Shown one piece after another: positions 52,401 through 54,427 of a DNA stretch of 64,000 nucleotides. The position numbers and the translations under genes were made by a program. Origin of the DNA: Yuukianura sp. NJ FZ-2021 (Eukaryota); the NCBI GenBank assembly GCA_046563655.1, contig CM102286.1, positions 7,564,001-7,628,000 of the forward strand, written 5' to 3'. Position 1 is the stretch's first letter, and every line of letters starts with the position of its first letter. The notes beneath the pieces were generated by a model. It saw only the letters and a program-made list of their open reading frames with translations. It ran no database searches and had not been told where the DNA came from.

Positions 52401-54427
52401 GAATCACAGCTTACCGAGCTATCTGAAGACCTTGAAAGTGAGAAGGTGGCTCGTGCCAAAGCAGAAAAATCGAAGCGTGACTTAACTGAGGAACTTGAGG
52501 CGTTACGAAATGAGCTGTTGGATACCTTGGATACGACAGCCGTCCAGCAAGAATTGAGGACGAAGAGGGAACAGGAGCTGGTTCAGTTGAAGAAGTGCTT
52601 AGAAGACGATACAAAAACTAACGAGCAAGCTCTTCAAGAGCTTCGTCACAAGTATGGACAAGAGATCAATGCTCTTCAGGAACAATTGGAAGGTGTGAAG
52701 AAGTCCAAAGCCGCTCTTGAGAAAACCAAAGGCACTCTGGAATCCGAGAATATCGATTTGGCCAATGAGCTCAAGAGTTTGAATAACAGCAAGACCGAGT
52801 TGGAGAAGAAACGAAAAACACAGGAAAGCCAAATGGCAGAGTTGATGAACAAGTATGAAAACAGCGAGCGTCGCTGTGCCGAGTACCAAGAGAAGTTGTC
52901 CAAGATGAGTGCAGAGCTGGAGCAAGTAAGCGGCGTCGTAGAGGAATTGGAATCCAAAGCAAGCAACAACTCCAAGGCCAATGTTCGAGCCGAAGAAAGA
53001 GTCAACGAACTGCAACAACTTTTGGATGACGAAACAAAGGCGAAATTGGCTCTCAATAACCTCGTGAAGAAGTTAGAATCAGAGAAGTCAGAACTTATGG
53101 ATAGTTTGGAGGAAGAAGAAGAACGGCGTATGACGCTGGAAAATCGACTCCAAGAAGCAACGAAGGCGTCTGAACTTAACAAAAAGAAGGGAGAAGACGA
53201 CGCTGATCTGATTACCAGTTTAGAAGCTACAATCAAGAAATTGAAAGCTGACAACGAAGAACTTACCAACAGCAACAACGAATTGTTGAACAGCAAGTCT
53301 AAACTGGAACAATCAAAGAAGAAGCTTCAACAAGAGTTGGATGACTCCATTCTGGAAATGAATGCCCAGAAGACCAAGATTGCTGATTTGGAGAAGAAGC
53401 AGAGGAACTTCGACAAAGTGCTTAACGAAGAAAAGATGATTAGCGACAAATTGTTGACGGAGAAGGAGAATGCTGAGAGAGATGCCAGGGAGAAGGAGAC
53501 AAAACTGTTGAGTTTGGTTCGAAGTTTGGACGACAAGAGCATTCAGCTCGAAGAAGTGGAACGCGTCAAGCGAAATCTTCAAAATGAACTTGATGAGTTG
53601 ACCAACTCGCAAGGCCATGCAGACAAGAACTATCATGAGCTGGAGAAAGCCAAACGACAACTGGAAACGCTCATCCAAGAGCAAAAGACGCAGATTGAAG
53701 AAATTGAAGATGAGCTCCAACTTACAGAAGATGCCAAGTTACGGCTGGAAGTAAATTACCAAGCGCTGAAGAGCAATCACGATCGAGATTTACGAGAAAA
53801 GGAAGAACAAGCTGAAGACAAGCGAAAGGCTTTGCTCAAACAACTCAAAGAGGTGGAAAGTGAGCTGGAGGATGAGAGGAAACAGCGAACTGCTGCCGTC
53901 AATGCCAAGAAGAAGGTGGAGATTGAGTACGAGCAAGTTTTGGAACAAGTGGACTCCTTCAATCGGACCAAAGATGATTACGTGAAACAGATCAAGAAAC
54001 TGCAGAAGAAAATCAAGGAGATTATGATCCAGGCCGATGATGAACGAAGAATTGGCGAAAACTACAAAGAGCATGTTGAGAAATTGAACACGAGAGTGAA
54101 GAATCTGAAGCGACAATTGGATGAGGCGGAGGAGGAGATTAGCAAAGAAAAAAGTATTAAGCGGAAGGCACAGAGAGAACTGGAAGATCTTCAAGAATCG
54201 TACGATGTTGTTCTCCGAGAAGTTCAAGGTCTACGGAGGTAAAATTTCTTAAAGTTGTCACTAGACTTGAGAATCTTTTATTATTTTTTCGATGTTTTGC
54301 TTAACGTTTTGAAAATTTTCTTAGACGAGGACAAGGAGCCGTTGCCACACCACGGAAAGCAAGAGGCTCGCTACCATTGGAGGAGATTAACTCTGGAGGC
54401 GATGAGCTTGTGGATGAGGCAGAATAA
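46448..54427 (+). CDS. zip: Non-muscle myosin II heavy chain (zipper/MYH9-10-like) with shortened rod
   Basis: Exons approx. 46448-46609, 46769-46957, 47062-47218, 48213-48361, 48608-48637, 49233-49488, 49580-49938, 50027-50350, 50444-50723, 50819-51192, 51303-54238, 54325-54427. Contains [48 protein letters not shown], coiled-coil rod and short non-helical tailpiece. Confidence 0.97.

Follow-up and report, generated by a model that had tools for sequence, protein, structure and literature searches.

A predicted non-muscle myosin II heavy chain lacking one 197-residue rod super-repeat in a springtail-related arthropod

Can the coiled-coil rod of an animal myosin II lose one entire charge super-repeat and still be kept in use? 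The question is raised by a stretch of 64,000 nucleotides (nt) from Yuukianura sp. NJ FZ-2021 (assembly GCA_046563655.1, contig CM102286.1, positions 7,564,001 to 7,628,000 of the forward strand), hereafter the window, in which a gene for what appears to be a non-muscle myosin II (NMII) heavy chain was found. Our analysis points, with a probability of about 0.8, to a functional NMII of a springtail-related arthropod that underwent an old in-frame loss of 591 nt, corresponding to one 197-residue charge super-repeat, i.e., seven 28-residue zones plus the third skip residue of the rod. The 196-residue charge pattern and the net-positive C-terminal zone are rebuilt from the units flanking the loss.

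The missing segment belongs to a single large exon, whose residue numbering is used below:

51306–54238, plus strand: one intron-free exon, 977 codons and two further bases long, comprising the converter end, two IQ motifs and the entire coiled-coil rod.
54003–54008, plus strand: junction CAG|AAG (Q900|K901), where 197 residues (591 nt) of the relatives are absent, as seen in the alignments, the bridging contigs and the related metagenome contig L001.

The initial annotation of this stretch had described an unbroken rod exon across 54005/54006, deprived in register of one unit of about 197 residues (7 x 28 plus one skip residue), and had suggested an alignment check for a single gap of that size. 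The exon indeed reads through the junction in one open frame, 51306–54238 on the plus strand, with no intron, and a MAFFT alignment with 12 arthropod NMII heavy chains returned one gap of exactly 197 residues, located after exon residue 900 (nt 54005/54006), opposite which all 12 chains carry 197 residues. Among 122 fetched homologues the count at the gap is exactly 197 in 116 and between 138 and 226 in six, probably because of gene-model differences, while none has 0. The only other differences are 3–4 residues at the rod end and insertions in a minority of the homologues. Both flanks are well matched, with 53–65 of 100 residues identical to the homologues on the left and 37–51 of 77 (48–66%) on the right, and therefore the gap cannot be shifted or split.

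Comparisons with single chains and with a profile gave the same result. When the exon was compared with Protein Data Bank (PDB) chains by phmmer, the offset to MYH9 was 744 for residues 3–964 and 941 for residues 723–977, a difference of 197, and the MYH9 landmarks that the initial annotation had supplied agree with the MYH9 chain in this match. The Pfam profile Myosin_tail_1 matches in two stretches, with profile positions 1–808 of 1081 corresponding to residues 97–904 before the match breaks. On the basis of offsets 744 and 751, the deleted part equals MYH9 1645–1841 or NM2B 1652–1848. Over the compared span the rod of the window has 883 residues, against 1,084 in the canonical NMII rod.

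A separate length difference was noted upstream, namely a 5-residue insertion after exon residue 704 in 25 of the 122 homologues; the window lacks this insertion, which some insects probably owe to an alternative exon or splice site.

The remaining parts of the gene are as follows:

46448–54427, plus strand: whole putative NMII heavy-chain gene, with ATG at 46448 and TAA at 54425–54427, delimited by open frames, tblastn of the Orchesella protein P0002 and reading of the sequence.
46451–51204, plus strand: about nine head (motor domain) exons with introns between them, borders approximate; the tblastn high-scoring segment pairs cover P0002 residues 23–779.
51408–51575, plus strand: region of light-chain binding (IQ) with the beginning of the coiled coil, by residue-by-residue alignment to MYH9 and MYH11; coordinates approximate.
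54239–54324, plus strand: last intron, GT...AG, phase 2, at a position kept in L001.
54325–54427, plus strand: last exon, with non-helical tailpiece and stop codon; in L001 the same intron is followed by a homologous exon.

The estimated product is about 1,770 residues long, compared with 1,950–2,000 in relatives. The motor is intact, with 622 of 742 head residues identical to Orchesella and three exon pieces matching Pfam Myosin_head (PF00063) at E values of 6e-41 to 5e-55. Reading of the open frames also revealed the motifs GESGAGKT, NSSRFGK and DIAGFE, which we take to be the P-loop, switch I and switch II, respectively. The neck contains two IQ motifs followed by the coiled-coil start WQWW...KVKPLL, exon residues 3–100 aligning without gaps to MYH9 747–846 and also to MYH11, and the rod exon scores 895 bits against Myosin_tail_1 (PF01576). 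Among PDB chains, MYH9 (876 bits), MYH11 (865 bits) and MYH10 (854 bits) score far above the striated myosins (at most 419 bits), and the gene is therefore assigned by sequence to the class II myosin heavy chains of the non-muscle/smooth (zipper/MYH9-10) type. All named best matches of the protein searches are non-muscle, one of them being labelled class V by its source.

Whether the junction exists in the organism, and not only in the assembly, can be judged from independent sequence data. Five DNA runs from two studies carry the stretch, and their contigs were placed on 51000–55000. Three of these, from two studies and under two organism labels, span 54005/54006:

Bridging contig X1 record 1: 29,187 nt, no insertion at the junction.
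Bridging contig X2 record 6: 53031–54229, no insertion at the junction.
Bridging contig X4 record 14: 52041–54372, 2,330 nt with 38 differences, from a separate 2021 study with another organism label, no insertion.

Metagenome contigs were also scanned with 158 residues around the junction. The contig L001, from a diverged species, aligned along the full 158-residue query as one segment with 87% amino acid identity; its junction is identical, its last intron is the same and precedes a homologous tailpiece exon, and the small gene downstream is also shared. Across 240 compared codons, L001 is identical to the window at 201 of 240 amino acids and 548 of 720 nt (76%), the proportion of differing synonymous sites (pS) being 0.83, i.e., saturated, and that of non-synonymous sites (pN) 0.092. 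Similarly, 29 of the 31 contig variants listed within the exon are synonymous. The sharing of the junction with L001, the pN and pS values and the synonymous variants therefore establish that the 591-nt loss is real and old DNA, common to at least two deeply diverged species, and that the gene is under strong purifying selection.

These data decide between several explanations. The initial annotation had itself named an assembly collapse as the alternative to a true deletion, in which case the gene would in fact possess the 591 nt. The best-matching DNA runs may be the very sample behind the window assembly, but no positive support for a collapse or misjoin was found, X4 record 14 crosses the junction independently, the diverged L001 agrees with it, and the two repeat units are too unlike as DNA to be collapsed; the bridging contigs from two studies and L001 thus exclude the collapse, which we hold to be practically untenable. 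A decaying pseudogene or retrocopy, as could be suspected from the intron-free rod exon and the long branch described below, is likewise very improbable, since the head introns and the reading frame are preserved, the divergence from L001 and the contig variants are overwhelmingly synonymous, and the last intron and the tailpiece are conserved in L001. Purifying selection is the line of evidence that argues for a functional NMII.

Some further contigs were seen in the same scans. A 587-nt Logan contig, X5 record 22, matches 53780–53986 with one difference and continues upstream with about 380 nt unlike the window; this loose end before 53780 may stem from a misjoin in the graph, from a structural variant or from a second locus. 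Contigs of X5 leave 54082–54215 uncovered, and X5 is uninformative on the junction. A second metagenome locus, L002, proved to be a distant myosin (42% identity) and was not used.

The loss is also in register with the periodicities of the rod. Heptads were placed by our own Viterbi assignment, in which the positions of shifts are accurate to about ±8 residues, and two skip-like shifts were obtained:

52650–52652, plus strand: first skip-like heptad shift, near exon residue 449, corresponding to NM2B Q1193.
53784–53786, plus strand: second skip-like heptad shift, near exon residue 827, corresponding to NM2B Q1586.

The skip residues of NM2 are Q1193, Q1586 and K1811 (PMC13438149). In Orchesella, the full-length relative examined, a third shift is found near 1055 and falls inside the lost part. 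The window thus has two shifts and not the three of the canonical rod because the 197 residues are missing, and the a/d pattern runs unbroken across Q900|K901 because the lost piece contained one skip residue. Charge units, profiles and complementarity were scanned by coarse calculations of our own. In every 196-residue unit the first half sums to about -11 and the second to about 0, the corresponding values of the lost unit being -11 and +2. The 28- and 196-residue charge periodicity is present together with a net-positive C-terminal zone, the sliding 98-residue charge profile being positive at the C-terminus as in full-length rods, and stagger peaks are kept at 99 residues (parallel; 93.5 compared with about 104 in full-length rods) and at about 298 residues. 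The in-register loss of one unit, with both heptad and charge phase preserved, had been proposed in the initial annotation and is borne out by these assignments and scans.

A functional map was compiled from the alignment and the coordinates of PMC13438149, PMC2204051 and PMC11335295. The lost part comprises the assembly domain NM2B 1729–1763, which overlaps the central crossover of the folded 10S state, the skip residue K1811, the N57 self-recognition region 1672–1728 and the crossover part of 10S segment 3. The net-positive zone of MHC-IIB spans residues 1748–1931 (PMC2204051), and since the natural loss maps to 1652–1848 it takes part of this zone, namely its first 101 residues. Both bend regions and the tailpiece are kept, in addition to two mapped elements:

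54084–54200, plus strand: retained distal assembly-competence domain, equivalent to NM2B 1875–1913, from alignment and offsets.
53700–53714, plus strand: retained acidic patch EIEDE, aligned with NM2B E1550/E1553/E1554, from the sequence and the MYH9/NM2B offset.

In the 10S fold of NM2B, the regulatory light chain is contacted by E1550, E1553 and E1554 (PMC13438149). Mapping onto NM2B coordinates from the same source confirms the earlier suggestion that the distal assembly domain was retained and the upstream one lost: 1875–1913 is present and conserved, 1729–1763 is absent.

Several consequences may be predicted from this map. The rod would lose about 29 nm of its length (197 x 0.1485 nm), and assembly would still proceed through the distal assembly domain and the 98/295-residue charge staggers, resulting in bipolar filaments that would be shorter and probably more salt-soluble. 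The 10S off-state would be expected to keep its light-chain contact, with a segment 3 of about 203 residues in place of about 400; this segment would end near the crossover and not beyond bend 1, and it would lack the 1729–1763 domain usually found in the central crossover.

Comparison with known systems places the protein among ordinary NMIIs except for its rod length. The motor, two IQ motifs, Myosin_tail_1 rod and tailpiece are common to the window and arthropod NMIIs, as represented by the springtails Orchesella (P0002), Folsomia (P0014) and Allacma (P0005). The alignment with the springtail proteins is colinear and without other notable indels, and the window differs from them in lacking the 197 rod residues and in an identity lower by about 5–10 points in head and rod. 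With respect to the vertebrate NM2B and NM2A 10S structures (PDB 9z3w and 9syu; PMC13438149), the bends and the acidic patch contacting the light chain align without gaps; the window is devoid of the part of segment 3 that holds the assembly-competence domain 1729–1763, the crossover region and the skip residue K1811.

There is also an artificial parallel. Deletions of 197 rod residues, dN197 and dPN197, were engineered in human MHC-IIB, and dN197, which is confined to the negative zone, formed normal paracrystals (Rosenberg et al., 2008; PMC2204051). The natural loss is of the same size and follows the same logic as both constructs, the 196-residue charge period and the distal assembly-competence domain being kept. 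It resembles dPN197 in removing part of the net-positive zone, a likeness judged from the description of the construct. Both constructs were made in the laboratory, whereas the natural form is conserved between species.

Acanthamoeba myosin II forms small bipolar filaments. With 1,509 residues (PMC2114752), it is also a naturally occurring member of class II whose rod is much shorter, but it belongs to another eukaryotic lineage, its rod is organized differently and it does not represent a one-unit deletion of the animal rod.

No other carrier of the junction was encountered in the protein libraries. In a search for longer proteins all 120 among the matches listed have residues in the gap, a search for proteins of near-equal length gave two weak matches and no junction carrier, and none of the 58 matches in a search for shorter proteins shares the junction. 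The 30 shorter matches that span it are 49–63% identical on the right side and only 20–30% on the left. A HMMER scan of 1.84 billion representatives likewise yielded, among its best 150 matches, none with both halves well matched; mostly one half is 38–61% identical and the other 16–32%, while ten have low identity throughout, with neither half above 38%. One good and one poor half are what normal rods are expected to give. None of the protein libraries searched yielded the protein of the window itself. In a FastTree phylogeny of the rod the window groups with the springtails (support 1.0) as sister to Allacma (support 0.76), which has the full 197 residues. A narrow literature search, which does not prove absence from print, found among the entries listed neither a natural one-unit rod deletion in an animal NMII nor work on springtail NMII.

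How the loss arose may be approached through its left edge. Protein fragments with the motif ...KQL[KR]K.Q (n = 33) were examined for a break in rod likeness; 27 lose it right after the motif, and all 27 go on with V (GTN), that is, a GT donor read through, one fragment having an in-frame insert ending ...LLQ before the rod resumes. Several of these fragments are identical to barnacle or insect NMII at 37–40 of 40 residues, and others come from more distant animals. The breaks with GT read-through therefore indicate an old phase-0 intron whose position coincides exactly with the left edge of the loss. Exons in the rod region of other animals have about 55 codons, and according to our own estimate the chance of such an exact coincidence is about 2% per edge. 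This match and the junction sequence CAG|AAG, together with a rod that is intron-free while introns are kept in the head, hints at an origin from spliced cDNA rather than from repeat recombination. In such a scenario, the conserved donor after ...KKLQ would have been joined to a downstream AG, either a cryptic one, with a GAG codon that may precede ...KK[IL]KE as the candidate, or one belonging to a lineage-specific intron. The cDNA of the mis-joined transcript would then have replaced the genomic rod, which would also explain the absence of introns.

The initial annotation had instead invoked recombination between homologous positions one super-period apart. More generally, a purely genomic event without splicing, in which neighbouring 197-residue super-repeats recombined unequally or slipped, would account for a spacing of exactly one super-period and for two sites at equivalent repeat positions (...[KR][KR]xx|xxIK[DE]). 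However, the repeats are only about 19–28% identical as protein across the junction halves, the sites themselves share almost nothing (...KKLQ|GQIKD compared with ...RRQE|KRIKE), and the letters in common at the break are at most the AG of CAG and of the possible GAG, so that a homology-driven exchange is implausible. Moreover, recombination neither predicts a left edge on a conserved phase-0 intron position nor explains the intron-free rod. The proposal is thus unsupported as it was worded, and we consider an origin in genomic recombination or slippage unlikely. Under either route, selection for register would have left only the in-register product.

Additional features of exon structure were observed in the same rod region. 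Many animals appear to have a small exon of about 54–57 codons, running from ...|LR[DE]LE.ELE[DE]ER... to ...KQLKKLQ| (fragments P0189–P0272), vertebrate-like fragments having one more intron after ...YK[DE]Q|; the rod is densely split elsewhere and intron-free here. Three short rod fragments from marine and other transcript catalogues, P0310, P0135 and P0142, seem to lack internal pieces of about 25–65 residues relative to their closest relatives, with examples such as ...QNKEL|IMQLEDERR and ...NRAKA|NRKLEKK; splice variants affecting this part of the rod, or artefacts of assembly, may account for them.

Several results weigh against the reading of a functional NMII that has long lacked one super-repeat, or against parts of it. 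Regarding assembly, dPN197, which cuts into the positive zone, showed reduced assembly and abnormal paracrystals, with 50% solubility at 120 mM versus 270 mM NaCl (PMC2204051), so that normal filament formation is not assured for the natural form. As the natural loss resembles this construct, which assembled less well, the natural form may fairly be predicted to assemble more weakly and more dynamically. Near 295 and 492 the stagger peaks persist, though at a lower height than full-length rods show, and there is no compensating positive charge, the last 186 residues summing to -4 compared with -1 to -3 (in one case +2) in relatives from which the segment was removed in silico. Regarding origin, no intron was found at the right edge in fragments from other animals, the nearest lying about 14 and 20 codons upstream; a splice origin would consequently require a cryptic or lineage-specific acceptor and is put forward as a hypothesis. 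No RNA run was present among the runs found to carry the stretch, all five being DNA.

The same holds for the divergence of the gene. Head identity is 84%, other springtails reaching about 90%, and its rod is 57–64% identical to those of other arthropods, which are 58–80% identical among themselves. In the rod tree the window is the longest tip, at 0.62 compared with a median of 0.43. Judged from sequence, a long branch in both head and rod would fit either a fast lineage or a diverging paralogue. In the latter case, a lineage-specific short-rod paralogue would exist beside a full-length NMII and would have a specialized or modulatory role, e.g., co-assembling with normal filaments and capping or shortening them. 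Several NMII genes do occur in some arthropod lineages, such as horseshoe crabs, among the matches listed. On the other hand, tblastn detects one NMII gene only within the 64-kb window, L001 retains the orthologous locus together with its neighbour, and the three named springtails each have one full-length NMII protein among the matches listed, which is not a test of gene number. A paralogue is accordingly somewhat doubtful, if a serious contender.

We tentatively suggest, at less than even odds, that the gene of the window represents the sole NMII of its springtail lineage, which would long have been used for cytokinesis and morphogenesis with a rod one 197-residue module (about 29 nm) shorter and deprived of one of its two assembly domains and of the 10S crossover lock, and which would have originated in one step by fixation of a mis-spliced or exon-skipped cDNA in the gene. 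If this is true, the 197-residue super-repeat would be a unit of length that can be taken out of the rod of an animal myosin.

Rod length hardly varies in animal myosin II, as reflected in the identical count of 116 of 122 arthropod relatives over the stretch, and it underlies the models of how minifilaments pack (98/295-residue staggers, two assembly domains) as well as those of the 10S state (three segments, a central crossover lock). A natural loss of one super-repeat that selection has maintained offers a ready-made test of these models and raises the questions of whether filament length scales with rod length, whether one assembly domain is sufficient in vivo and whether the 10S fold can form with half of segment 3. 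It is also a natural parallel to the engineered 197-residue deletions of human NMIIB, which gave mixed results (PMC2204051). Finally, the break on an old intron position may serve as a worked example of how splicing and cDNA conversion could remodel a periodic protein in register.

Some other genes of the window were also noted. The gene that lies next downstream, at 55395–55604 on the plus strand of the window and at 1726–1983 of L001, encodes a small predicted membrane protein (…MRQQNIRQSTLPILILALVSIAFIVAFKVFLLLWKVTYY…) with no Pfam match; its conservation close to the myosin gene in both species indicates that the locus is syntenic. On the minus strand, a short-period repeat region with SKSK[PT]GE[AT]R... 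units at 56445–56744 adjoins a very acidic open frame of 223 amino acids at 56785–57453, for which no Pfam match was obtained. Further downstream, a multi-exon tubulin-like gene occupies 59066–60850 on the minus strand, one exon piece of which matches Pfam Tubulin and Tubulin_C; from the reading of its frames, we presume it to be of the gamma type.

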